58,978 nt of DNA from Patescibacteria group bacterium (GCA_038057125.1 JBBUDU010000003.1:85978-144955); one strand, 5' to 3'. Shown: positions 4,079 to 49,408, counted from the stretch's first letter. Numbers and translations: made by a program. Notes: generated from the letters alone by a model not told the origin.

Positions 4079-4348
4079 TTACCCGAGAAAATTTTTACTA
4101 ATAAAAAAATTGCTGAGGACCTTTTTGATGTGATTTCTGCCGTATTGTGTTTTCATATATTTTTCACGATTATAAGCATCTTTACTGTCAATATACGCTT
4201 CGTAGTAGATAATTGCAAGCGGCGCGTTTTTCTTTGTTGAAGCAACTTTTTTCGCATTATGCAATACCAATCGAGCCTTTAAATCCTTTGTGCAACCAGT
4301 GTATAATTCACCGTTCTTTTTACTCTCAAGTACGTAGACGTATTGCAT
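4079..4348 (-). CDS. stand-alone GIY-YIG (URI) domain protein, 89 aa
   Basis: N-terminal YVYVLES...GELYTGCTKDLKARLVLHN matches the GIY-YIG pattern. Abuts the murG start with no gap. Confidence 0.7.
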   Translation of the reverse strand: MQYVYVLESKKNGELYTGCTKDLKARLVLHNAKKVASTKKNAPLAIIYYEAYIDSKDAYNREKYMKTQYGRNHIKKVLSNFFISKNFLG

Positions 4349-4366
4349 AATGCATTAGTAAAAACT

Positions 4367-5482
4367 TTAGCGGGTGAATTTAGAAATATTTAGTAAAATA
4401 CCAATCTCAATAAAAGCAAAGATAAGCGCTGACCCGCCCTTGCTCACAAAGATAAGAGGAATTCCTTTGAGCGGAATAACGCCAAGCATCGCTCCTATAT
4501 TCACAAAAGACTGAGATACTATTAGTATAACAATTCCAACAGCCAAAAGCGACTCAAAAGAATTCGGAGCACGATGTGCAATTTGGAGTCCGCGAAGACC
4601 AAACAAAAGAAATAAAATAATAAGAATTGTTCCGCCAATAAACCCAAACTCCTCCGCCGCGACTGCAAAAATAGAGTCCCCTGTCGGTTCGGGAAGAGCC
4701 CCAAATTTTTGAATACTTTGGCCAAATCCACGCCCCGTGATGCCTCCAGACCCAATGGCGAGAAATGATTTTTGTATCTGATAGCTGGCCCCCTGCGGAT
4801 CATTAGATTGATTAAAAAAAGTAACCACGCGCGCTTTCACATGGGGGCTTGTCAACGTGAGTACGCCGACAGAAAAAATACCAATAACGACGAGAATAAA
4901 AAAAACGCGTATTTTTGCTCCGCTTGCAAGAAGCATCGCACACATAGCAACAAAAAGGACGGCAAGTGTACCATTGTCGGGCTGCAGAAGAAGGATTACA
5001 GAGGGTATGGCAATTGCCCCAAAAAAGACACCTATTGCATATTTTGTGACTTGAATACGGTCTTTTAAAAGTGCGAGTATTGCGGCGAAATAAATGACGG
5101 TTCCAAGCTTAAGCACCTCGGAAGGCTGGAATGAGATTGGCCCAAGCCATAACCAACGCTTTGCTCCGCCATGTTCCGCCCCAAGACCCGGTATAAAAAC
5201 AAGAAGCGTGAGAATCGCAGCCACAATAAAAATGTGTAGCGCATAAGAACGCAAAATATTAAGTGGAATATTAAGCATTACAATAAGCAACACAATCCCC
5301 AACAAAAAACCCAACCCAACCTGGTCAAAAAATAAATCTCTTAGAGAAAGTCCGTCGCTGACAAAAAGTCCGAACGAAGCAGAGGTGAAAACAAAAAGTC
5401 CTGCTAATGCGAGGAGGAATACGATGCCGAGAAATATTTTATCGATTGATTGGATTTTTTTCATCTCATTCCAGAATAACAA
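4367..5482 (-). CDS. ftsW: SEDS-family lipid II flippase / peptidoglycan polymerase (FtsW-like)
   Basis: About 10 predicted TM segments and the position between mraY and murG. The start could instead be Met7. Confidence 0.8.
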   Translation of the reverse strand: MLFWNEMKKIQSIDKIFLGIVFLLALAGLFVFTSASFGLFVSDGLSLRDLFFDQVGLGFLLGIVLLIVMLNIPLNILRSYALHIFIVAAILTLLVFIPGLGAEHGGAKRWLWLGPISFQPSEVLKLGTVIYFAAILALLKDRIQVTKYAIGVFFGAIAIPSVILLLQPDNGTLAVLFVAMCAMLLASGAKIRVFFILVVIGIFSVGVLTLTSPHVKARVVTFFNQSNDPQGASYQIQKSFLAIGSGGITGRGFGQSIQKFGALPEPTGDSIFAVAAEEFGFIGGTILIILFLLFGLRGLQIAHRAPNSFESLLAVGIVILIVSQSFVNIGAMLGVIPLKGIPLIFVSKGGSALIFAFIEIGILLNISKFTR

Positions 5483-10343: not shown

Positions 10344-10610
10344 TTAGTGGTAAAATTTACTCTGTATTTCATCGAGTGCTTCTTCGCGAGTCTTATCATT
10401 TATGAGCCTCTCAATCAAGTCACTTTTTGGATCATCTATAATCTCTCGAAAACGCGCGCTATTTGAGGCAATCCACGCCTCGGCAAAGTCATCTCCGCCA
10501 GCCCTTCTAATGAGTTCCATTTGCGCGCCCTGTATAATTTCAAATTTACTTTGTTCGGGGTCGATAAATGACTCAGTTTTACCAACAATTTTTTCAAAAA
10601 AATTTTTCAT
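10344..10610 (-). CDS. hypothetical acidic protein, 88 aa
   Basis: Fills the gap between trpS and aspS exactly. No family recognised. Confidence 0.4.
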   Translation of the reverse strand: MKNFFEKIVGKTESFIDPEQSKFEIIQGAQMELIRRAGGDDFAEAWIASNSARFREIIDDPKSDLIERLINDKTREEALDEIQSKFYH

Positions 10611-10614
10611 ATTA

Positions 10615-11631
10615 TTACATTACTAATCCCATTTTTTCTCGCATTTCTTTCATTGTTTTTGCGACCACCACACGCCCGCGATCGGTACCTTCTTTTATGA
10701 TAGTCCTTACAAGGTTTTCGTTTTCCTCGTAATACTTTCTCTTTTCTCTTATAGGCTCGAGAAAATCATCAAGGACTTTATAAAGAATTTCCTTAACTTC
10801 CACATCTTTTATACTTCCCTCTCGATAACGTCTTTTTAATTCTTCGTTTTGTTGCTTATTACTATTAAAAGCATCCAAGTAAATAAAAACGGGGTTCCCT
10901 TCGACTTTTCCAGGATCATTGGCGTGAATTCTGCCAGGGTCAGTATACATTTTCATGACTTTCTTTTTTAAACTATCGGGACTTTCCGATAGATTAATCG
11001 TATTTCCTAAGGACTTACTCATCTTTTCTTTGCCGTCAGTGCCTTTTAAACGAGGGAAATCAGATATTAGACTTTGAGGAAGTACGAATAAATCCCCGTA
11101 TATACGATTAAAATTCCTGGCTATCTCCCTCGCCTGTTCTATCATGGGAGACTGGTCTTCGCCGATAGGAACAAGATTAGCATTAAAACCAAGAATATCA
11201 GCAGCTTGGCTAATTGGGTATATGAAAAATCCTACCGGTAAAGAGCCACGAAATCCTTTTTTCTTGATCTCCTCTTTAACTGTCGGGTTTCTCTCTAGTT
11301 CCGCTACTGTAATTAAATTCATAAAATATACAGTCATTTCAAATAATTCAGGAATTTGCGATTGCAAGACAATAGATGTTTTTTGAGGGTCAATTCCAAC
11401 ACTTAAGTAATCGATGGTCACAGTAATTATATTCTGGGAGATCTTTTCCGAGTGCTCAAAATTATCAGTCATAGCTTGAACATCAGCGATAAGTATGTAT
11501 TGTTCATACTCATCCTGAAGCTTTATCCTGTTAATTAAAGAACCCAAATAATGCCCCAAGTGCAAAGGGCCGGTAGGTCTGTCTCCAGTTAAAATTCGTT
11601 TTTTTCTATTATTTTGATTCTTATCTTCCAT
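10615..11631 (-). CDS. trpS: tryptophanyl-tRNA synthetase, divergent subtype, full length
   Basis: TGDRPTGPLHLGHYLGS (HIGH) and KMSKSLGN (KMSKS). 338 aa. Visibly more AT-rich than flanking genes. Confidence 0.88.
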   Translation of the reverse strand: MEDKNQNNRKKRILTGDRPTGPLHLGHYLGSLINRIKLQDEYEQYILIADVQAMTDNFEHSEKISQNIITVTIDYLSVGIDPQKTSIVLQSQIPELFEMTVYFMNLITVAELERNPTVKEEIKKKGFRGSLPVGFFIYPISQAADILGFNANLVPIGEDQSPMIEQAREIARNFNRIYGDLFVLPQSLISDFPRLKGTDGKEKMSKSLGNTINLSESPDSLKKKVMKMYTDPGRIHANDPGKVEGNPVFIYLDAFNSNKQQNEELKRRYREGSIKDVEVKEILYKVLDDFLEPIREKRKYYEENENLVRTIIKEGTDRGRVVVAKTMKEMREKMGLVM

Positions 11632-11744
11632 TGAATTTCATTATACAAAAAAATGAGGAATGACGCTACTTTCACCGTAATATCTCAGTAATATTGAATG
11701 GCCCTTGTCTACAGAAAGTATAAGCAGAGCAAACATTAAGCACT

Positions 11745-11773
11745 CAAACAAAAACCCCACATAAGTTTTGTTC
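11745..11773 (-). terminator. rho-independent terminator after the radical SAM gene
   Basis: An 11-bp stem, ccccacataag/cttatgtgggg, followed on the minus strand by TTTTTGTTTG. Confidence 0.7.
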
Positions 11774-11798
11774 TTATGTGGGGGAGAGTTGAAATCCT

Positions 11799-12908
11799 TC
11801 AAAACGAAGGTGGTGCTACACCAAATAGATTACAGAGAGACATGAAAGAATCTCTTTCTTCTGCCGGTAAAATCGGAAGAATTTCTTTTTCTACAAGAGG
11901 CAACAAGGAACAACATTTTGGATCAGGGCTAAAGATAGAGCCTGTCAGATACTGCGAATCAGCGCGACAACCACCACCGCAGATTCTTAAATACCGACAA
12001 CTAACGCACTCAGAAATCTCTCGAACCTTCATTGAGTAAAAAGGGTTGCCTTTGGAAGTTGAGTATGCAACTTTTAGAGATGTTCCCTCCCCTACATGCG
12101 CAGTTTTTAGATTATAGGCAGCGCAAACATTGACATCACCGTTCGGCTTTACGCACACGATATCTCGATAACAACATGGGTGCATATTGATATCAAATTC
12201 ATGATATGGAACGCTAGCAATTTGTGACTTGTAAATGTTCGCAATACCTAACCGAAACGGCCGCTTATCCTCAAGGTAAAGCTTGAGCAATTCCTTCACC
12301 ATGGCTATTACTTTGAAGTACGGTGGTATACCAAACTCAGCTGGTGCCTTTTTGTAAAGGTCAGAAGAAAAAGGGATGTCCAAATTCCACCAGTTGATAC
12401 CTAAAACCTTAAGCCTTTGGTAGAGAGGCAAGATGTCATCCATATTGCTATTATTAATCATTGTCACAACAGCTAATGGAATCTCTGATTCTTCCTTAAC
12501 CATCCTTATCCTCTCAAGTACTAGTTGGTGGTTACCATTTCCCCTGAATGAATCATGAGAGTTGAACCCGTCCAAGCTGAGCCGAATAGCTCTCAGTTTT
12601 CCAGTACCAACTAACTTTTTAAAACGATCTTTTGTTAGTAAATGACCATTAGTCAGCAAGATTACCGGGGCATTACAGGCGTTGATAAGCTCAATAAGCA
12701 TATCGCAATTACCGCGCTGATAAAGAAGCGGTTCCCCTCCTGAAAAATTGAAACGCTCACATTGCAAGGCGTTGGCTTCTTCTATTAACCGCAACCATTC
12801 CTGATGAGTCAGTTCCTTACTTTTGGTGGATGGCAGATTGTATACTTCGTTGTAGCAATGAGCACAACCCAGATTGCATTTTCCAGTTAACTCCAAGTGC
12901 ATAAACAT
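11799..12908 (-). CDS. radical SAM enzyme with C-terminal SPASM domain (peptide-maturase-like)
   Basis: CNLGCAHC (CX3CX2C) at residues 11-18. C-terminal Cys pattern C..CVKPNGDVNVC, CVSCRYLRICGGGC (CX2CX5CX3C), then KCC. RBS AAAGGAG 6 nt before the ATG. Confidence 0.85.
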   Translation of the reverse strand: MFMHLELTGKCNLGCAHCYNEVYNLPSTKSKELTHQEWLRLIEEANALQCERFNFSGGEPLLYQRGNCDMLIELINACNAPVILLTNGHLLTKDRFKKLVGTGKLRAIRLSLDGFNSHDSFRGNGNHQLVLERIRMVKEESEIPLAVVTMINNSNMDDILPLYQRLKVLGINWWNLDIPFSSDLYKKAPAEFGIPPYFKVIAMVKELLKLYLEDKRPFRLGIANIYKSQIASVPYHEFDINMHPCCYRDIVCVKPNGDVNVCAAYNLKTAHVGEGTSLKVAYSTSKGNPFYSMKVREISECVSCRYLRICGGGCRADSQYLTGSIFSPDPKCCSLLPLVEKEILPILPAEERDSFMSLCNLFGVAPPSF

Positions 12909-12940
12909 ACGGAACTCCTTTCGCTTTTAGGTTACAAAGA

Positions 12941-12973
12941 GGGGGTATCGATTTCAAAAAAATCGATACCCCC
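12941..12973 (-). promoter_or_regulatory. perfect 13-bp-stem hairpin between the peptide ORF and the radical SAM gene
   Basis: gggggtatcgatt / aatcgataccccc with a 7-nt loop. Only a weak T-tract (TCTTTGT) follows on the minus strand. Confidence 0.6.
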
Positions 12974-12990
12974 AAGTGTTTGCCACTTCG

Positions 12991-13140
12991 TTATATGTCG
13001 CACCAATGTCCCTTAAGCACAATGCCGCCCTCTTTTTGAATTGGGGCAACTGGTGTCGCAGGCTTCGGTACTACGGGCTTTTGAACAACCGCTCCTTGCA
13101 AAAGGACAGGTTGCTTCAGGGGCTGCGTCTGCATTTGCAT
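12991..13140 (-). CDS. candidate RiPP precursor peptide, 49 aa (MQMQTQPLKQPVLLQGAVVQKPVVPKPATPVAPIQKEGGIVLKGHWCDI)
   Basis: Hand-translated and below the ORF-track size cutoff. AGGAG lies 7 nt upstream of the ATG. The ORF sits immediately upstream of the rSAM/SPASM gene and has its own promoter. Pro/Val/Gln-rich leader, Gly-Gly, short C-terminal core. Confidence 0.5.
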   Translation of the reverse strand: MQMQTQPLKQPVLLQGAVVQKPVVPKPATPVAPIQKEGGIVLKGHWCDI

Positions 13141-13211
13141 GATAAGTCTCCTAACAAGGAACGCTGGCATCGTCGAGGGCTCTCAACTTAAAACACCAAC
13201 ACCTAGTGGAA

Positions 13212-13239
13212 AGTATACCTTAATATGACACAAAGTCAA
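13212..13239 (-). promoter_or_regulatory. sigma70-like promoter for the peptide-rSAM operon
   Basis: On the minus strand: TTGACT, 16-nt spacer, TATACT. About 70 nt upstream of the peptide ATG, inside the 3' end of the trpS remnant ORF. Confidence 0.55.
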
Positions 13240-13492
13240 CCTTTACAATACCAGATATCGTCTTTTTAGGGTCTATGCCTATGGCGAGATAATCCATCGC
13301 GAGGTCAAGCGTAAGTTTTTTGAGGAGAACGCCGTCTGACACGCTCGTGAGCGCGTGATAGTTGGCAATAAAAATAAACTGGCGATAGTTACCCTGTTGG
13401 TTAACAAACTGGCGCATAGCTCCAAAATAGTTACCAATATGAGCCGTCCCCGATGGTTGCACCGCCGAAAGTAGTGTTTTCTGCATTTCCAT
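13220..13492 (-). pseudogene. trpS: 5' remnant of a canonical bacterial-type trpS (first ~79 codons)
   Basis: LSAVQPSGTAHIGNYFGAMRQFV...YLAIGIDPKKT matches the TrpRS N-terminus including HIGH. Similarity stops near 13255 and a stop codon follows 11 codons later. Confidence 0.7.
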
Positions 13493-13655: not shown

Positions 13656-14690
13656 CTACTTGCCTGAAATACGGAGCAGAGCAAGCTCGAGAGAAAGCCC
13701 CGGGACTTTCGCCACCCGCACGGACTCATAGGCGCGCAGGAATTCGGCAAGCTCTTTTGACGTCAATGTATGCGTTGCGTTCTTTGCAAGATCTTCAATA
13801 ATTGTCATATCTTCTGTCGGAAAATCCTCGGCAAGGCGCTTTGCAGAGCCCGCCACAAAACGAAACATCATTACCGCGCGCATTTTGCGGAGAAGTAAAT
13901 CAAGAAAAACTTTTTCTTCTACTCCTTGTTCAACTGACTTTGCAAGGGTCGAAAGTCCTGTCTCGACATCGCGCGCCACCACCGCGCGGAGGAATGAATT
14001 TACAATGCGACTATCGGGCGCGCCAGTTGCCGATTCCACTTCTTGTTGAGAAATCTTTTTGCCCGCGGATGCCGCTATGACTTTTTGAAGGATGCCGTAT
14101 GTATCACGAAACGAACCATCGCCAAGAAGCGCAATGAGGTCCGCCGATGCAGGCTCAAGTGTGTAGCCCTCTTGTTTGATTACACGTTCCACCATTACTT
14201 TGAGCGTTGCCTGTGAAGGCTTCTCAAAACGAAAACTCTGGCAACGCGAAACGATTGTTTCAGGAATTTTGCCCTCATCGGTTGTAGCAAGAATGAACAC
14301 AACGTGCTTTGGTGGTTCTTCAAGAGTTTTTAAAAGCGCAGGAAATGCTTCGCGCGAGAGCATGTGCGCTTCATCAATAATATATACTTTGTATTGCGAG
14401 TGCATCGGCACGGTGTGCACCGCGTCCCTAAGAGCGCGTATGTCATCAATGCATCGATTGGACGCTGCATCAATCTCATAAATATCATCATCGTGCGCCC
14501 CAATAGCCCGCGCAAAAATACGCGCGATTGAAGTCTTGCCTGTACCGCGAGAACCGGAAAAAAGATACGCGTGCCCAATAGAACCCGCCTTAATAGCGCC
14601 CAAAAGTGTTTTTATGGTTTGCTCTTGTCCGATGACCTCTTCAAAAGTTTTCGGGCGATATTTGGTATAAAGTGCGAGGCTTGAGGACAT
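13656..14690 (-). CDS. dnaX: DNA polymerase III gamma/tau subunit (short form)
   Basis: Walker A GSRGTGKTS, DEAHML box, SRCQSF sensor motif. 344 aa. Confidence 0.85.
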   Translation of the reverse strand: MSSSLALYTKYRPKTFEEVIGQEQTIKTLLGAIKAGSIGHAYLFSGSRGTGKTSIARIFARAIGAHDDDIYEIDAASNRCIDDIRALRDAVHTVPMHSQYKVYIIDEAHMLSREAFPALLKTLEEPPKHVVFILATTDEGKIPETIVSRCQSFRFEKPSQATLKVMVERVIKQEGYTLEPASADLIALLGDGSFRDTYGILQKVIAASAGKKISQQEVESATGAPDSRIVNSFLRAVVARDVETGLSTLAKSVEQGVEEKVFLDLLLRKMRAVMMFRFVAGSAKRLAEDFPTEDMTIIEDLAKNATHTLTSKELAEFLRAYESVRVAKVPGLSLELALLRISGK

Positions 14691-14710: not shown

Positions 14711-15733
14711 CTAAAGTGACTTGAGAAAATCCCGCACAATGCGCTCCACCTCGTCGGCATTTTTCGCATCCATCATTTGCACGCGAAGTTCTTTTGCGCC
14801 GTCAAATCCGTTTACATAAGCCTTGTAGTGCTTTTTCATAATTGCGAAATTTTTAATGTCGCCCAAAAGTTTTTCAAAGAGGTGCGTGTGCTCGATGAGT
14901 ATATTGAATTTTTCTTCAAGCGTTGGGGGTGCGGTGCGGTTGCGGTCAAAAAGCCACGGCGTGCCAAACATCGCGCGACCGAGCATCACGCCGTCTGCAT
15001 CAGTCTCTCGTGCTTTAGTGTGCGCATCAGTGAGGTCTCGTGCATCGCCATTGCCGATTATGAGCGTACCAGTACCCTCCGCAAGTTTTACAGCGCGCGC
15101 GACCTCTTCCCACCGCGCTGGCACGAGTGAAAGTTCTTTGCGTGTGCGCGCATGCACGGTAATAGCTGCGGGCTTGGTCTCAAGTATCGCGCCAATCCAC
15201 TCTTCGAGGTTTTCTTTATTATATCCAATGCGAGTTTTAACCGACACGGGCAAACCACCTGCACCCGCCATTGTCGCACGGATTACTTCTTGCGAAAGTT
15301 TCAAATTTTTTATATGTGCCGCACCAGCGCCTTGTTTCTCAATGCCTTTATCGGGGCAACCCATATTGATATCAATGCCGTCAAAACCGAGAGACTTGGC
15401 GAGTTCGGCTGTCTTTTTCATATTTTCCGGATTTGAACTAAAAATCTGCGCGACAATAGGGTGCTCGCGCTCGCTGAATGCAAGGTCTCGCTTCAAAATC
15501 TCGCGACCCGCACTACACAAGCCGTCCGCAGAAACAAACTCAGTCCAAAACACATCGGGGCCGCCTCCCGCTTCACCATGACGACTATACTTTGAAATCA
15601 TCTGGCGAAAGGCTGCATCCGTCACATCCGCCATCGGCGCAAGCGCAAAAAAGGGTTTCTTGAGATCTGCCCAAAAACCCATAATAGGTCCGCTAGCACT
15701 TGTTTGTTTCACTTCTTCTTTCATACGTGGCAC
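14711..15733 (-). CDS. dus: tRNA-dihydrouridine synthase
   Basis: FFALAPMADVTD start, DGIDINMGCP motif, TVHARTR motif. Confidence 0.85.
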   Translation of the reverse strand: MPRMKEEVKQTSASGPIMGFWADLKKPFFALAPMADVTDAAFRQMISKYSRHGEAGGGPDVFWTEFVSADGLCSAGREILKRDLAFSEREHPIVAQIFSSNPENMKKTAELAKSLGFDGIDINMGCPDKGIEKQGAGAAHIKNLKLSQEVIRATMAGAGGLPVSVKTRIGYNKENLEEWIGAILETKPAAITVHARTRKELSLVPARWEEVARAVKLAEGTGTLIIGNGDARDLTDAHTKARETDADGVMLGRAMFGTPWLFDRNRTAPPTLEEKFNILIEHTHLFEKLLGDIKNFAIMKKHYKAYVNGFDGAKELRVQMMDAKNADEVERIVRDFLKSL

Positions 15734-15751
15734 TCTAACATAAGTAGTTGA

Positions 15752-16180
15752 CTACTTCAAAAAAGTAAATTCGTTTACAATTCTTTTTTGTGTATTTTCA
15801 AGAGAGGTTTTTAGGTCTTCTACCGTGCTAAACTGCTGGTAAAAATAGGGGGTTGTCTGAGGTCCGCCATAAACATGGAGATGAAAATGTCGCACATCCT
15901 GAGCGTCTTCCCCATTTACTTGATGTAAAATAATAGACGTATACCCAAATATTTTTTTTAAAATAACCGCAGATTGTTGCGCAAGTGACATAACAGCAGA
16001 GAGTTCTTCTTCTGAAATATCGAAAATATCGTTTGCATGATGTTTTGGGATAATCAATAGGTGCCCTTCTGTTGCTGGCTCACGATCAAGAAATGCAACA
16101 GCAAAAGAGTTTTCATCAACAATATAAGCAGGTGCTTCCTTTGCTGCAATCGCACAAAAAATATCTTTATGGGGAGTCAT
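15752..16180 (-). CDS. HIT-family nucleotide hydrolase/transferase
   Basis: Histidine triad HFHLHVYG. Start placed at Met16 of the track ORF. Confidence 0.8.
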   Translation of the reverse strand: MTPHKDIFCAIAAKEAPAYIVDENSFAVAFLDREPATEGHLLIIPKHHANDIFDISEEELSAVMSLAQQSAVILKKIFGYTSIILHQVNGEDAQDVRHFHLHVYGGPQTTPYFYQQFSTVEDLKTSLENTQKRIVNEFTFLK

Positions 16181-16263
16181 GTGTATACAATAAAGCAAAA
16201 GTAAATAAAAAAGAAGAGCAAACACAATGTTTGCTCTTCAAAGGAACCAGACGCCTTTTATCG

Positions 16264-16947
16264 CTAGGCGCCAACGGCCTGTTTCAAGGGAACAAAAGAA
16301 TCGAATGCACTTGCGCGCAACATGCATTGACGACACACACCGCAAGGAACATCTGAAGAGGCGGAACATGAATGGGTGAACCTGAAATCAATATCAAGAG
16401 TTACGCCAAGATTTACCATGTCCTTTTTTGAATACCCGATAAAAGGGGTCTCAAAATTACATGGTGAATACGACCCGAGGGCGGGAAGTTTTTCGAGAGC
16501 ACGTAAGTACTCCAGAACTTTTTCCTGCGACGTACCAATAAGGTCGTCTTGATGGATTGCCCAGTAAATATGCTTTATCCCACGGATCCTTGCAAACATG
16601 AGGGCAGTGAGGTGCAATAGCTCAACGCTCATAGGAACAGGGGTTTTCCCGCGAGAAACGCAATTATTGACGGACCCGCCAACATTAAAAGACATGTTGG
16701 TGTTTGTCCCTCCAAGCATCTGCTCAATAAATTTGAAGTCGAGTACGACATGCAAAATATTGAGCTTCTTAGCAAGAAACGTTGCGTTGTTGATTTCCAC
16801 CCAGTTTGTATCGCCAGGGTACCGCAAGCTTAGTGCATGCACCTTTTTTCCTTCGGCACATAATTTTGCTGCACAAACAGCGGAATCAATCCCGCCAGAC
16901 AACAGAACTAAAACCTGCTGTTTCAGAACAGTACAAGAATTATCCAT
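16264..16947 (-). CDS. QueC-like PP-loop ATPase (7-cyano-7-deazaguanine synthase family)
   Basis: PP-loop LLSGGIDSAV near the N-terminus and C-terminal SC...CGVCRQCMLRASAF Zn-Cys motif typical of QueC. Start placed at Met16. Confidence 0.65.
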   Translation of the reverse strand: MDNSCTVLKQQVLVLLSGGIDSAVCAAKLCAEGKKVHALSLRYPGDTNWVEINNATFLAKKLNILHVVLDFKFIEQMLGGTNTNMSFNVGGSVNNCVSRGKTPVPMSVELLHLTALMFARIRGIKHIYWAIHQDDLIGTSQEKVLEYLRALEKLPALGSYSPCNFETPFIGYSKKDMVNLGVTLDIDFRFTHSCSASSDVPCGVCRQCMLRASAFDSFVPLKQAVGA

Positions 16948-17029
16948 GATTGCTTCTTCTTTGAATGTAAAAGGTACAAAATCGCACCACATTTATAATA
17001 CCATAAAAATTGAGAATTTCAAGGGCCAC

Positions 17030-17881
17030 CTAATTTTCAAACCCGAAGAAAATTTTATTTCCAAAACGCATATCTATATATAAAAGTTTCTTTTTTAGCG
17101 CGACATTGTCGGGAAACTCTTTGGAAATTGCCGAGTGCAATCTTTTTATGAGCACTGCCGGACTCTCTTCATCTTTAAATCGGATTGTAACTCCCAGAAG
17201 AAACGGGTACGCCTCACTCGCGCGAATAATAATTTCGGCTTCCCCTTCAGGTTTCAAAATAATGCGAAGTGGGTCCCCCACTTCCCTCTCCAAAAGTTTT
17301 ACAAATGTATCTGCAGAAATAAAACGACTATGCGGGAGCGAGGCACGCAATGGAACGCCTACATTTTTTTCTATGAGCTTTGAATACACCTCAAGGTAAA
17401 CCCCGCCGGAAAAAACTGGAGCATGATCAAATACAAAACCGGCTTCATCGATGAACCAACAATCAACGAGAGACGGAGTGACATTCTGTCCGCACCACAG
17501 CGCGTACGGCTTGCGTTCAGATGTATTAATTTCCAGAGCGCGATTATCGGTACGATTTACAGAGACTGTCGCAAGACGCGGAAATGTTTCAATGATGGAC
17601 AGCTCTATTTCTTTTTTAGGAAACAAGTAACTATTGTTTCGCGAATACACAAAAAAATAATTTCCAAGAAGTTTTTCCTTCGCAAGCGCACGCACGGCAT
17701 CCTCTGAAACAGTTTTTATGCCTGTAATGTCTAGCTGGCTAATCTGCCACCTATCGTTGTGCGACACTCCACCAAGCGCAACAAAAAACAAAAACGCAAG
17801 GAGTAGTACGATAAAAGTTCTACTGAGCCACCGGCTCGATTGTTCACGGAGACGGAGAAAAATATTCGCCAAGCGTGTCAT
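17030..17881 (-). CDS. FtsQ/DivIB-like cell-division protein (single TM + POTRA-like region)
   Basis: N-terminal TM (FIVLLLAFLFFVALGG), then ISQLDITGIKTVSEDAV, typical of a POTRA start. Weak family-level call. Confidence 0.55.
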   Translation of the reverse strand: MTRLANIFLRLREQSSRWLSRTFIVLLLAFLFFVALGGVSHNDRWQISQLDITGIKTVSEDAVRALAKEKLLGNYFFVYSRNNSYLFPKKEIELSIIETFPRLATVSVNRTDNRALEINTSERKPYALWCGQNVTPSLVDCWFIDEAGFVFDHAPVFSGGVYLEVYSKLIEKNVGVPLRASLPHSRFISADTFVKLLEREVGDPLRIILKPEGEAEIIIRASEAYPFLLGVTIRFKDEESPAVLIKRLHSAISKEFPDNVALKKKLLYIDMRFGNKIFFGFEN

Positions 17882-47820: not shown

Positions 47821-48243
47821 TCACTTTGGGATTGTGAGAAGCTGTCCGGGGCGAAGTTTGGTGTCGCTCGTCATGTTGTTTGCGAGAAGGAGTTTCTTTG
47901 GCGGAACATCATGCTTTCGCGCAATGTTCCAAAGCGTATCTCCTTTTTTCACCACATACTCACCCTTGAGCTTGCCGACATGTTCCCAGAGCACATCCTT
48001 CTTCGGTGTCTGCGCCTGTGTCTGTTCCTTTTTGGCAACCTTATCGGGTGCCTTTATGGACGATGAACCGCCGTGAACGACCGTCTTTTTCACCTCCACC
48101 TTATTCAGGTAGTCTGTCGCCAGTTGAGTATAGGTGACAACTTGGGTCTTGTCGCCAATCCACAAGAGGCTGACAGCGATGAACGCAACGGCTAGCACAC
48201 GCCAAGTGTTTCTCGCGTACTGCTTCAGAATGACTATATTCAT
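47821..48243 (-). CDS. membrane-anchored LysM-domain protein
   Basis: N-terminal TM. C-terminal YVVKKGDTLWNIARKHDVPPKKLLLANNM...LRPGQLLTIP matches the LysM consensus. Confidence 0.75.
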   Translation of the reverse strand: MNIVILKQYARNTWRVLAVAFIAVSLLWIGDKTQVVTYTQLATDYLNKVEVKKTVVHGGSSSIKAPDKVAKKEQTQAQTPKKDVLWEHVGKLKGEYVVKKGDTLWNIARKHDVPPKKLLLANNMTSDTKLRPGQLLTIPK

Positions 48244-48307
48244 AGCAAAGAACTCCTTTTGGTTGAATGAAACTACTCCCCTAAGTATACACTATTTCAG
48301 CTTTTTG

Positions 48308-48598
48308 TCAAGCCCTTGTAATCATATAATTTGTAGCGCACAAGACACTAAATATTCCGCGTCCTTTTAGTTTCGATAAGCTTCTTCGATTGTCGGATTT
48401 CTTCTGTGCTTTGATTGCACAATAGCTTCCATAATCCTCTTTGTTTCTTCTGAATTCCCTAGAGATGACTGAGTCGTCAACCATAAGAGCAATGGCGATT
48501 CCGTGATAATTTTTTTTGTCCATCCACAATGCTTCGATACGAAAACGATTTTCTTGCGTCAAATGCGCAGAATCTTTATGAATTTTTAGTAGAACCAA
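48308..48598 (-). pseudogene. IS30-family transposase N-terminal (HTH) fragment
   Basis: HLTQENRFRIEALW...ISREFRRNK...AIKAQKKSDNRR resembles the IS30 N-terminal HTH region. No DDE catalytic domain follows. Confidence 0.5.
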
Positions 48599-48640
48599 AG
48601 CAGTGACTCGGTTTTCCTGTTTTCTGCTCTCTCGTGACTA

Positions 48641-49408
48641 CTATTTCTTCAAAAACTTGAGTGTTTTCTCAAAGAGTTCTTTTTGGGTTCGCCTACCGTC
48701 AAAAAGATGATTTGCTTTTTTGATAATTGTAAATACTGATTCTCTTTTGTTACGAAGGTTCAGTTTCGCAAAATATTTTTTTGCATCCTTACCAACCCCC
48801 TTATCTGCGCCAATTACACAAACTTTCATGGAAAGTCCTTTCAAAATCTCTACTGCATCCATCGTTTCTGAAAGTTCTTTATAAAACCCTGCATTAAAAA
48901 TGCAAGCATCCTTCCCTCTTTTTTCAATATATACTTTCCTTTCACGATCAAAGGCAAACGCCTCATCCATCAGTTTTTTCTTAAATGGCAAAATACTTGG
49001 GTCCCACAAAACAAGGCTTGTTCTTTGAGCATATTTCTTGTATTTATTCAGAAAAGTAATTAATATGGGAGCGCCAAAGCTATGTCCAACAAATATAAAC
49101 TTCGAGTATCTTTCCCCTCCAGTATAATCCAGTAGATTTTTTAACTCAATTGCATAAATCGAGAAATTCATAATTTCTAGAGCGAGCGCATCAGTTTTTT
49201 TGGTTTTCTTTTCGTTGCTATTACACAGATTTGTTCTTAATATACTAAACCCCATCTTGCAGAACTCTTTTTCTGCCGTTTTAAAAAGGGGTGTGTCTTT
49301 CTCCCCTGAGAGTCCACTTAAAAACAAGACGAGGGTAGTCGATTTTTTATTTTCTTTTAGATTATAGTAAATACTCTTAGTGATCTTTGTTTTTGATCTA
49401 ATTTTCAT
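48641..49408 (-). CDS. alpha/beta-fold hydrolase
   Basis: Nucleophile elbow GHSFG, and a C-terminal KANHLFDG segment that could carry the catalytic His. Confidence 0.7.
   Translation of the reverse strand: MKIRSKTKITKSIYYNLKENKKSTTLVLFLSGLSGEKDTPLFKTAEKEFCKMGFSILRTNLCNSNEKKTKKTDALALEIMNFSIYAIELKNLLDYTGGERYSKFIFVGHSFGAPILITFLNKYKKYAQRTSLVLWDPSILPFKKKLMDEAFAFDRERKVYIEKRGKDACIFNAGFYKELSETMDAVEILKGLSMKVCVIGADKGVGKDAKKYFAKLNLRNKRESVFTIIKKANHLFDGRRTQKELFEKTLKFLKK

Follow-up and report, generated by a model that had tools for sequence, protein, structure and literature searches.

The window analysed here is a stretch of 58,978 nt from a Patescibacteria group bacterium (GCA_038057125.1 JBBUDU010000003.1:85978-144955). 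Our subject is a block of this window, at positions 10,611 to 13,492, in which the 5' remnant of a tryptophanyl-tRNA synthetase (TrpRS) gene, trpS, is followed by a very small peptide gene, a gene for a radical S-adenosylmethionine (rSAM) enzyme of the SPASM type and a complete trpS of a different sequence type. All features of the locus lie on the minus strand, in the order dus, dnaX, a 90-aa open reading frame (ORF) holding the remnant, a small ORF, the rSAM gene, the TrpRS gene, orf88, aspS, scpA and scpB. The dnaX product is 76-92% identical to that of Candidatus Yonathbacteria and related Paceibacteria metagenome-assembled genomes, which identifies the window as part of a Candidatus Yonathbacteria genome, within the candidate phyla radiation (CPR). 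The closest genome, L001 (JACRKU010000013; comparison loci are given as L numbers, proteins as P numbers), has the order dus-dnaX-trpS-orf87-aspS-scpA-scpB, with flanking genes 84-92% identical to their window counterparts. Between dnaX and the orf88 homologue it carries a single intact canonical trpS encoding 322 aa, with no rSAM gene, peptide gene or remnant.

Displacement of the resident trpS gene

The 90-aa ORF (13220..13492) consists of codons 1-78 of a canonical, type I trpS (13492-13259), 12 unrelated codons and a stop codon. It matches positions 1-78 of the TIGR00233 trpS profile (E 6e-20) as well as PF00579 (E 8e-11), and is therefore TrpRS-like by hidden Markov model. Aligned with the N-terminal part of L001's intact canonical TrpRS, the remnant is 88% identical in amino acids over 76-77 aa and 82% identical in nucleotides; to the window's own full TrpRS it is just 33% identical. 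An earlier sequence-only reading had taken this ORF for the start of a classical TrpRS that loses similarity at about 13255, and both statements were borne out: the likeness stops after T78 (codon 13261-13259), and a tblastn search of the 59-kb window found no trace of residues 79-322 of the canonical enzyme. The ratio of nonsynonymous to synonymous substitution (dN/dS) of the remnant relative to L001 is 0.077, equal to that of the intact neighbouring genes (0.05-0.07), which indicates that the gene was truncated recently when set against the divergence from L001. Translation of the remnant probably begins at the second ATG (MQKTLL, where L001 has MRKTLL). The first 13 nt of the ORF (13480-13492) match those of the peptide precursor ORF described below (13128-13140) at 12/13 positions (ATGGAAATGCAGA vs ATGCAAATGCAGA).

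DNA homology between the window and L001 covers dnaX and the first 266 nt of trpS, ends at 13260-13256 and resumes at about 10630, in the orf88 region. At this left junction (13256..13260), homology to L001 ends after GIDPKKT, and homology to L092, a related peptide/rSAM locus, starts at 13251. A 15-nt near-repeat (14/15 matches) spans the junction at 13254-13268 and recurs at 10824-10838, in codons 265-269 of the complete trpS; it represents either chance or microhomology left by recombination. Apart from this near-repeat, the block has no flanking direct or inverted repeats, and it contains no recombinase gene. The right junction lies at 10618..10630, where homology to L082 and L085, the loci of its nearest TrpRS relatives (P0004/P0005), ends at 10630, and is a probable in-frame fusion to the last four codons of the old gene (GLVM and the stop). 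The window TrpRS ends in MREKM-GLVM, its relatives in MRDKM-SVESF and the canonical L001 enzyme in KKA-GLIL. About 45 TrpRS-II sequences were inspected, made up of 38 database relatives and those of the related loci; they end in KM plus five residues (e.g. SVESF) and none shares the ending found in the window. This window-specific C-terminus places the right junction most likely within the last codons, as an in-frame chimera in which trpS-II appears to be fused to the last four codons of the old gene.

Approximately 2.63 kb (13258-10630) thus stands where ~0.73 kb of the old trpS was: codons 79 to ~318 of the resident canonical gene have been displaced in place by 2.6 kb of foreign DNA. Both the synteny with L001 and the DNA breakpoints agree with the earlier proposal that a module was inserted into, or recombined with, the resident trpS. 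An assembly artefact was ruled out, since database records of the exact proteins (remnant, rSAM and TrpRS) come from 4-6 contigs each. When the 90-aa remnant was used as the query in a protein search for near-identical intact canonical TrpRS, only short proteins were returned. Among short TrpRS N-terminal ORFs (94-152 aa) we observed P0243, P0264, P0316, P0325 and P0330, on contigs of 22 kb to 1.9 Mb, as further candidates for truncated trpS genes.

The only intact trpS at the locus is the TrpRS-II gene (10615..11631), which encodes 338 aa with HLGH as its HIGH motif and with KMSKS present. The protein scores 278 bits against the TIGR00233 cutoff of 177, over residues 10-336, and is 36% identical to the canonical type, in line with the earlier description of a full-length TrpRS of a clearly different type. 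Its closest solved structure is D. radiodurans TrpRS II (1YI8/2A4M; E 2e-119), and the L001 TrpRS is closest to the Campylobacter and Thermus type among solved structures. Database proteins P0002-P0005 are 79-82% identical to the window enzyme. At the start of the trpS-II part of the block (11640..11650), homology to L082, L084 and L085 begins at 11650 and a TATAAT box occupies 11645-11640, 8 nt before the trpS-II ATG, so that the mRNA is probably leaderless or nearly so.

The loci with the closest TrpRS relatives have features of their own. A 39-aa Trp-containing ORF, MGPALFLKAHYKGTNRQAPVATGIVLNVRASWDHDWQHK, with a strong Shine-Dalgarno (SD) sequence and two hairpins, precedes trpS-II in L082 (1352-1471) and L085 (about 4250-4370). 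In L081-L084 the 39-aa ORF lies downstream of a different rSAM/SPASM gene, and an HD_4 gene follows trpS. The rSAM protein beside trpS in these loci was considered as a possible version of the window enzyme and ruled out, being 21% identical and of a different family. The 39-aa ORF may belong to a second kind of Trp-peptide/rSAM/TrpRS-II unit, or may be a trpS attenuator. L081 carries an insertion sequence (HTH_Tnp_1 and rve) between rSAM and trpS, and its contig reads as its own mirror image, suggestive of a palindromic mis-assembly.

The peptide gene, the radical SAM enzyme and the composition of the block

The peptide/rSAM unit is preceded by a sigma-70-like promoter site at 13212..13239 (TTGACT-16 nt-TATACT, 10/12 matches), and TTGACT-type sites were seen by eye at the corresponding place in L087, L088 and L092. 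The site lies below the break in trpS, as the sequence-only reading had noted; the distance given there, about 15 nt, did not hold, as TTGACT starts 19 nt below. The precursor peptide gene (12991..13140) encodes 49 aa, MQMQTQPLKQPVLLQGAVVQKPVVPKPATPVAPIQKEGGIVLKGHWCDI, with the core VLKGHWCDI at 13020-12994. Its ATG at 13140 has the SD sequence TAGGAGA 6 nt upstream and is the likely start; the gene had been recognized before as a 59-aa ORF, with a start at 13170 that is now replaced.

Comparison with related loci showed how little of this peptide is conserved. L092 encodes a 49-aa homologue of the precursor (67% aa identity, dN/dS 0.155) and L093 a 43-aa ORF with an unrelated leader; together with the window these are the leader-bearing precursors (43-49 aa), and most relatives are leaderless. 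Core-only genes with a strong SD encode MVLKGHWCEL (L087), MVLKGHWCDS (L088), MVLKGHWCGD (L091, L176), MVLKGHWCGS (L175), MVLKGHWCD (L095) and MVLKGHWC (L174). In many relatives the entire peptide gene is thus 8-10 codons long, and the conserved part is the C-terminal VLKGHWC only. Across 10 loci, these seven codons show many synonymous differences and no amino-acid change. Folding revealed a perfect stem-loop of 14-15 bp immediately behind the window's peptide gene (12941..12973), and perfect hairpins of 10-20 bp, unrelated in sequence, follow the peptide gene in 9/9 folded loci (z -2.4 to -6.5). The mini-ORF adjoins the rSAM gene in all 21 related loci but L107, where no clear peptide was found.

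The rSAM/SPASM enzyme (11799..12908; 369 aa; PF04055, E 9e-20) is followed by an intrinsic-terminator-like hairpin with a T-run (11755..11783). Its radical SAM motif CX3CX2C (C11/C15/C18) and a full SPASM pattern (C245-x11-G257-x4-C262, C301-x2-C304-x5-C310-x3-C314, C333) are invariant in 23 homologues; the Pfam SPASM model was not reported for the protein at E<=0.01. The ~100-aa N-terminal RiPP recognition element (RRE; RiPP, ribosomally synthesized peptide with post-translational modification) of SuiB, CteB and SkfB is missing. The AlphaFold model has a pLDDT of 91, and its best fold matches are PqqE, SkfB, SuiB, anSME (TM 0.72) and CteB. No NCBIfam cutoff is reached: 25 families are listed among 78 matches, all far below, with ScmE as the best (95 bits vs a cutoff of 400); among the others are DynA (79 vs 450), PqqE (79 vs 381) and WgkB (77 vs 650). 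Membership in the named rSAM/SPASM families DynA, PqqE, MftC, WgkB, PapB, YhhB and ScmE was accordingly rejected, none being at cutoff among the matches listed. A profile search of 1.84 billion representatives returned 678 proteins at E<=1e-30, and several dozen of the top matches have the same length as the window enzyme and no N-terminal extension. Judged from adjacency, conservation of the core, the occurrence of leader-bearing and core-only variants and the type of enzyme, the peptide is very probably the substrate of the rSAM protein.

The sequence-only reading had described the block as more AT-rich than its flanks. This was correct for trpS (36.7% G+C) and the rSAM-trpS spacer (35.3%), and incorrect for the rSAM gene (41.6%, near average) and the peptide ORF (50.6%, GC-rich), the window mean being 44.2% with a standard deviation of 2.9% for 1-kb windows. 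Ranked among windows of the same size, trpS plus spacer falls at the 1.6th percentile of GC and the whole block at the 5.7th, and by tetranucleotide distance the whole block is within the most atypical 1.5%. The block therefore differs in composition from the rest of the window without being uniformly AT-rich, and a uniform AT-rich island was ruled out because only trpS and the spacer are AT-rich.

Alignments divide the block further. Sub-block A (13251-11798; promoter, precursor, hairpin and rSAM gene) matches L092 from end to end (73% nt identity), a contig that ends 35 nt after its rSAM gene. Sub-block B (11650-10630; -10 box and trpS) aligns with L082, L084 and L085 (75% nt identity). The 150 nt between them, which hold the terminator at 11783-11755, resemble neither set of relatives. 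On these alignments, the block is a mosaic: its two parts differ in their nearest relatives and in GC. A single co-inherited cassette is weakened as an explanation by the affinities to L092 on one side and L082/L085 on the other, and by incongruent rSAM and trpS trees.

Synthetase genes beside related peptide/rSAM pairs, and the flanks of the block

Linkage to TrpRS-II was counted over loci with an rSAM protein at least 42% identical to that of the window and with enough flanking DNA, which gave nine loci in addition to the window. In all nine, a TrpRS-II gene adjoins the rSAM gene or lies 2.5 kb off (L090). These neighbourhoods show at least five gene arrangements with varied flanks. Across the family the orders include peptide-rSAM-trpS, trpS-peptide-rSAM, rSAM-trpS-peptide with a terminator (L095), peptide-rSAM convergent with trpS, and proS-rSAM-peptide; the peptide stays beside the rSAM gene wherever trpS sits. 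The earlier claim that the cassette travels with a divergent trpS is thus upheld as to linkage, and fails as to strict co-inheritance given the incongruent trees.

More distant relatives of the rSAM enzyme (L096-L107, 30-38% identical) also have ORFs of 9-15 codons alongside and are linked to other aminoacyl-tRNA synthetases (aaRSs). Peptides of the form M[T/S/V][L/I]KGHCTD[D/L/Y] pair with CysRS in L097, L098 and L099; L096 has a Cys-type peptide on a contig too short to show such a pairing. Peptides of the form M[V/A][L/I]KNKQPS have ProRS directly beside the rSAM gene in L101-L105. In L106 the peptide is MVLKSRGWN, with an ABC transporter next to it and ArgRS 3.7 kb away. L100 encodes the peptide MKEKREVLKGHCGDC together with a GNAT protein and a second rSAM enzyme, and has no CysRS within 13 kb; L107 has no aaRS, and carries an M20 peptidase and an MFS transporter. 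The rSAM protein of L090 is most like the Trp-type enzymes (57-61% identical to those of L091 and L175), and its peptide, MVLKGHCCSG, has HCC rather than HWC and is encoded directly behind cysS; genes for a GNAT and an M20 peptidase lie downstream. The Cys-type mini-ORFs of L096 (1331-1363), L097 (4282-4314), L099 (7163-7195) and L100 (5873-5920) have no SD sequence. A TATAAT-like box 1-6 nt before their ATG suggests that their mRNAs are leaderless.

When one panel of five aaRS queries was applied to both sets, an aaRS was present in 18 of 22 non-redundant loci of the family and in 1 of 66 control loci of more distant rSAM/SPASM relatives (Fisher p = 5e-14). Wherever an aaRS is adjacent, the class of the peptide corresponds to the specificity of the enzyme: W with TrpRS-II, C with CysRS and P with ProRS. 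Pairs of mini-peptide and rSAM genes, linked to the genes of cognate aaRSs, thus make up a family of their own. Its peptides often have only 8-10 codons and the form x-[L/I]-K-..., and the residue that the aaRS matches lies close to their C-terminus. We found no NCBIfam model and no paper on this rSAM family, its mini-peptides or their aaRS link, in a search that had most subscription journals outside it.

The flanks of the block belong to the resident genome. dnaX (13656-14690) has its closest match in L001 (92% aa identity). On the other side, orf88 (10344..10610) lies outside the module and is 57% identical in amino acids to the same-position orf87 of L001, with a dN/dS of 0.24. The longest ORF for aspS, which starts at 10399, shares 56 nt with orf88 (10344-10399), and the alignment to L001 AspRS begins at residue 5, so that the real aspS start is probably further downstream than 10399. 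In other Yonathbacteria-like genomes (L002-L016) dus-dnaX is kept and synteny is lost right after dnaX, where several contigs end; the 3' side of dnaX seems to be a variable spot among these genomes. A second difference between the window and L001 lies near the trpS event: a HIT-family gene (15752-16225) and a QueC-like PP-loop ATPase gene (16264-16992), between dus and the next conserved gene (window 15689-17034), are absent from the same site in L001. The lowest GC of the window (~35%) is found at 48200-49400, where an HTH_38 protein (48308-48598) and a 255-aa protein without clear family (48641-49408) are encoded, possibly another foreign island.

Proposed function, alternatives and known systems

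We speculate that the block encodes a RiPP-like inhibitor together with an insensitive version of the enzyme that it targets. That the product targets TrpRS had been suggested as a speculative possibility by the sequence-only reading, and the agreement of peptide residue and aaRS across the wider family lends this indirect support. The rSAM enzyme would install a radical-mediated modification on the peptide, the likeliest being a cross-link within the peptide at or beside the W-C end of its core, and the hairpin after the peptide gene would leave more transcript for the peptide than for the enzyme. The mature product, or a released fragment, would act on the cognate aaRS of other cells by mimicking the amino acid or the aminoacyl-adenylate, and the linked aaRS would be the producer's insensitive version. 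An insensitive linked aaRS would explain why the module is kept beside it, and would allow a genome acquiring the module to lose its original, presumably sensitive, trpS. Inhibition of aaRSs would also account for the immunity-type genes (GNAT, peptidase, transporter) found where the aaRS is missing. We give about an even chance that the whole of this account, displacement of trpS plus a RiPP-like product directed against the cognate aaRS, to which the linked enzyme is insensitive, is the best explanation of the locus. By analogy with known inhibitor systems, the functional step within it, that the product or a released fragment inhibits the cognate aaRS and that the linked aaRS is insensitive, comes close to even and perhaps falls a little short. 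The generalization to the family is more tentative still: leaderless mini-peptides of 8-10 residues (x-L-K-...-X-C/T/S) may be matured by RRE-less rSAM/SPASM enzymes into aaRS-specific inhibitors, with residue X (W, C, P, perhaps R) setting the target and a matching insensitive aaRS alongside, and with the original, presumably sensitive, TrpRS of the window having been erased on arrival.

Several observations weigh against an aaRS inhibitor with a linked insensitive target. The TrpRS-II type is common as the ordinary TrpRS, with thousands of homologues and an ordinary context in L086, so that no special 'resistant' clade is evident. The 59-kb window holds no trpS besides the 78-codon remnant and the TrpRS-II gene, hence no second, sensitive housekeeping copy within these 59 kb. 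This differs from the producers of tiarins, peptides considered below, in which the aaRS of the biosynthetic gene cluster (BGC) is always a second copy (bioRxiv 10.64898/2025.12.02.691738): they keep their housekeeping aaRS, and here the resident trpS is destroyed. Module-linked TrpRS-II genes are scattered in the TrpRS-II tree, form no clade and are incongruent with the rSAM tree; within the rSAM clade of the window, L087, L092 and L093 (64-76% identical), the TrpRSs that go with these enzymes share only ~58% identity. The scatter argues for a neighbourhood that is maintained or re-created rather than simply inherited, and it fits strict co-transfer poorly. The loci within a peptide class are related, which reduces the rule linking residue and aaRS to ~3-4 independent associations, and the association with ArgRS in L106 is weak at a distance of 3.7 kb. 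Immunity by a MccE-like GNAT was considered and rejected: the GNATs are generic, with no specific likeness to a solved immunity acetyltransferase. Finally, the cassette in the window encodes neither an exporter nor a protease or other immunity factor.

The same linkage could arise if the synthetase were a partner in the pathway, binding the matching side chain and presenting the tiny peptide to the rSAM enzyme, supplying aminoacyl-tRNA or aminoacyl-AMP, or being regulated by the modified peptide. The rSAM enzyme lacks an RRE and many of its substrates are leaderless; moreover, the linkage persists despite disagreeing trees, as expected if any local TrpRS-II serves. The closest solved relative, D. 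radiodurans TrpRS II, is reported to work with a Trp-modifying nitric oxide synthase (PMC9437257), and aaRS genes in BGCs can mark tRNA-dependent steps (10.64898/2025.12.02.691738). We nevertheless regard a pathway role as unlikely. The matching residue is peptide-encoded and internal, and an aaRS pocket that recognizes a free alpha-amine and carboxylate would not be expected to take it up; had any TrpRS been able to serve, there would have been no need to swap a canonical trpS for type II; and some family loci without an aaRS have a GNAT, peptidase or transporter instead. About equally unlikely, in our judgement, is a peptide-derived cofactor, metabolite or signal of the pyrroloquinoline quinone (PQQ) or mycofactocin kind that does not act on an aaRS, the aaRS neighbourhood then reflecting amino-acid co-regulation or hitch-hiking. 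PqqE leads the structural matches and, together with MftC, ranks high among the profile matches, the precursors are tiny with C-terminal conserved residues, the window cassette has no exporter, and metabolically dependent CPR cells could use such molecules. Against this, the window lacks the peptidase or oxidase partners of pqq and mft operons, and hitch-hiking leaves unexplained why three aaRS types each match a peptide class and why the W-to-C switch occurs beside cysS.

A correspondence between codon and aaRS is also the predicted outcome if the mini-ORF were an attenuation or arrest leader that senses charged tRNA or the amino acid via its W, C or P codon, with the hairpin as attenuator and the rSAM enzyme acting on tRNA, the aaRS or something else. 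A stable hairpin follows every mini-ORF, L082 and L085 have a different Trp-containing small ORF with hairpins directly upstream of trpS-II, Streptomyces auxiliary trpS genes are attenuation-controlled, and the core VLKGHWC resembles E. coli TrpL (...VLKGWW...). Gene order led us to reject such a leader, which we consider very improbable: in most loci the mini-ORF lies downstream of the aaRS (L087, L091, L175 and L176) or convergent with it (L093, L174 and L104), and in L095 and L101-L105 it comes last, with a terminator behind it. Placed in this way, the mini-ORF is in no position to control the aaRS, and several loci leave it nothing downstream to control. In addition, there is a single cognate codon, the entire 7-residue core is invariant, and the folds show a single perfect hairpin, with no anti-terminator pairing noticed, although no systematic search for one was made. 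The least probable alternative, to which we give hardly any weight, is a plain replacement of trpS by a horizontally acquired xenologue, beside which an unrelated RiPP pair lies by chance. In-place displacement of aaRS genes is common in bacteria, and the two sub-blocks differ in nearest relatives and GC; chance, however, does not predict an aaRS neighbourhood that recurs in 18/22 related loci, in many orders and flanks, vs 1/66 controls.

If the inhibitor model is correct, these peptides would form a second, chemically unrelated family of 'addressable' aaRS inhibitors besides tiarins and microcin C, made by a minimal two-gene system of ~30 nt coding for the peptide and one rSAM enzyme. A simple sequence rule would apply, in which a peptide residue predicts the target, and new rSAM chemistry on leaderless substrates would be added. 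In the window, a biosynthetic module would have taken the place of the gene for its own target, a natural case in a minimal CPR genome, and the product would be a candidate weapon or signal for CPR bacteria, whose interactions with hosts and competitors are poorly known. Whatever the function, the three-way link between mini-peptide, rSAM enzyme and cognate aaRS, and very small genes missed by gene callers, call for explanation.

Microcin C is a heptapeptide-adenylate made from the 7-codon gene of MccA, among the smallest genes known; it acts as a Trojan-horse inhibitor of AspRS, its C-terminal residue sets the target, and immunity is provided by a GNAT (MccE) and a peptidase (MccF). The window system shares the very small peptide gene, but the ThiF-like adenylyltransferase MccB is absent, and putative immunity would come from the aaRS itself. 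The window rSAM enzyme shares its fold and three-cluster cysteine pattern with SuiB (streptide, Lys-Trp), SkfB and CteB (thioethers), PqqE, anSME and DarE/DynA. Like those rSAM/SPASM maturases, it has an adjacent putative substrate gene with a hairpin, and the core residues K, H, W and C are those that such enzymes cross-link; unlike them, it has no RRE, and sequence identity is 13-20%. Albomycin and mupirocin producers share the logic of an insensitive aaRS. As in producers of the TrpRS inhibitors indolmycin and chuangxinmycin, a TrpRS gene lies within or next to biosynthetic genes. Antibiotic-insensitive second TrpRS genes confer self-resistance in producers of the TrpRS inhibitor indolmycin (PMC9437257); in contrast to such auxiliary enzymes, the window TrpRS is encoded by the only intact trpS at the locus, and its insensitivity is putative. 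Xenologous in situ displacement of an aaRS likewise puts a foreign equivalent at the same position with the flanking operon context kept, but here a 5' remnant survives, the peptide/rSAM unit comes along and the 3' junction is an apparent in-frame chimera.

In tiarins, the BGC-encoded aaRS matches one core residue, GNATs give immunity, and the chemistry depends on enzymes of the TfxB/C type and on a Gln conserved behind the specificity residue (10.64898/2025.12.02.691738). The text of that study mentions neither radical SAM enzymes, TrpRS, tryptophan nor Patescibacteria. As in tiarins and trifolitoxin, the peptide cluster described here adjoins an aaRS matching one core residue, and GNATs are sometimes associated. 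Unlike tiarins, it has no tfx-type genes, its cores VLKGHWC and LKGHC(T/C) are without that Gln, its sole enzyme is an rSAM/SPASM protein, and its peptides can be leaderless and 8-10 aa long. A RiPP cluster with the target aaRS is a kind of system already known; new are the enzyme class, the leaderless 8-10-aa putative substrates, the occurrence in CPR hosts and the loss, by destruction, of the resident gene for the proposed target.

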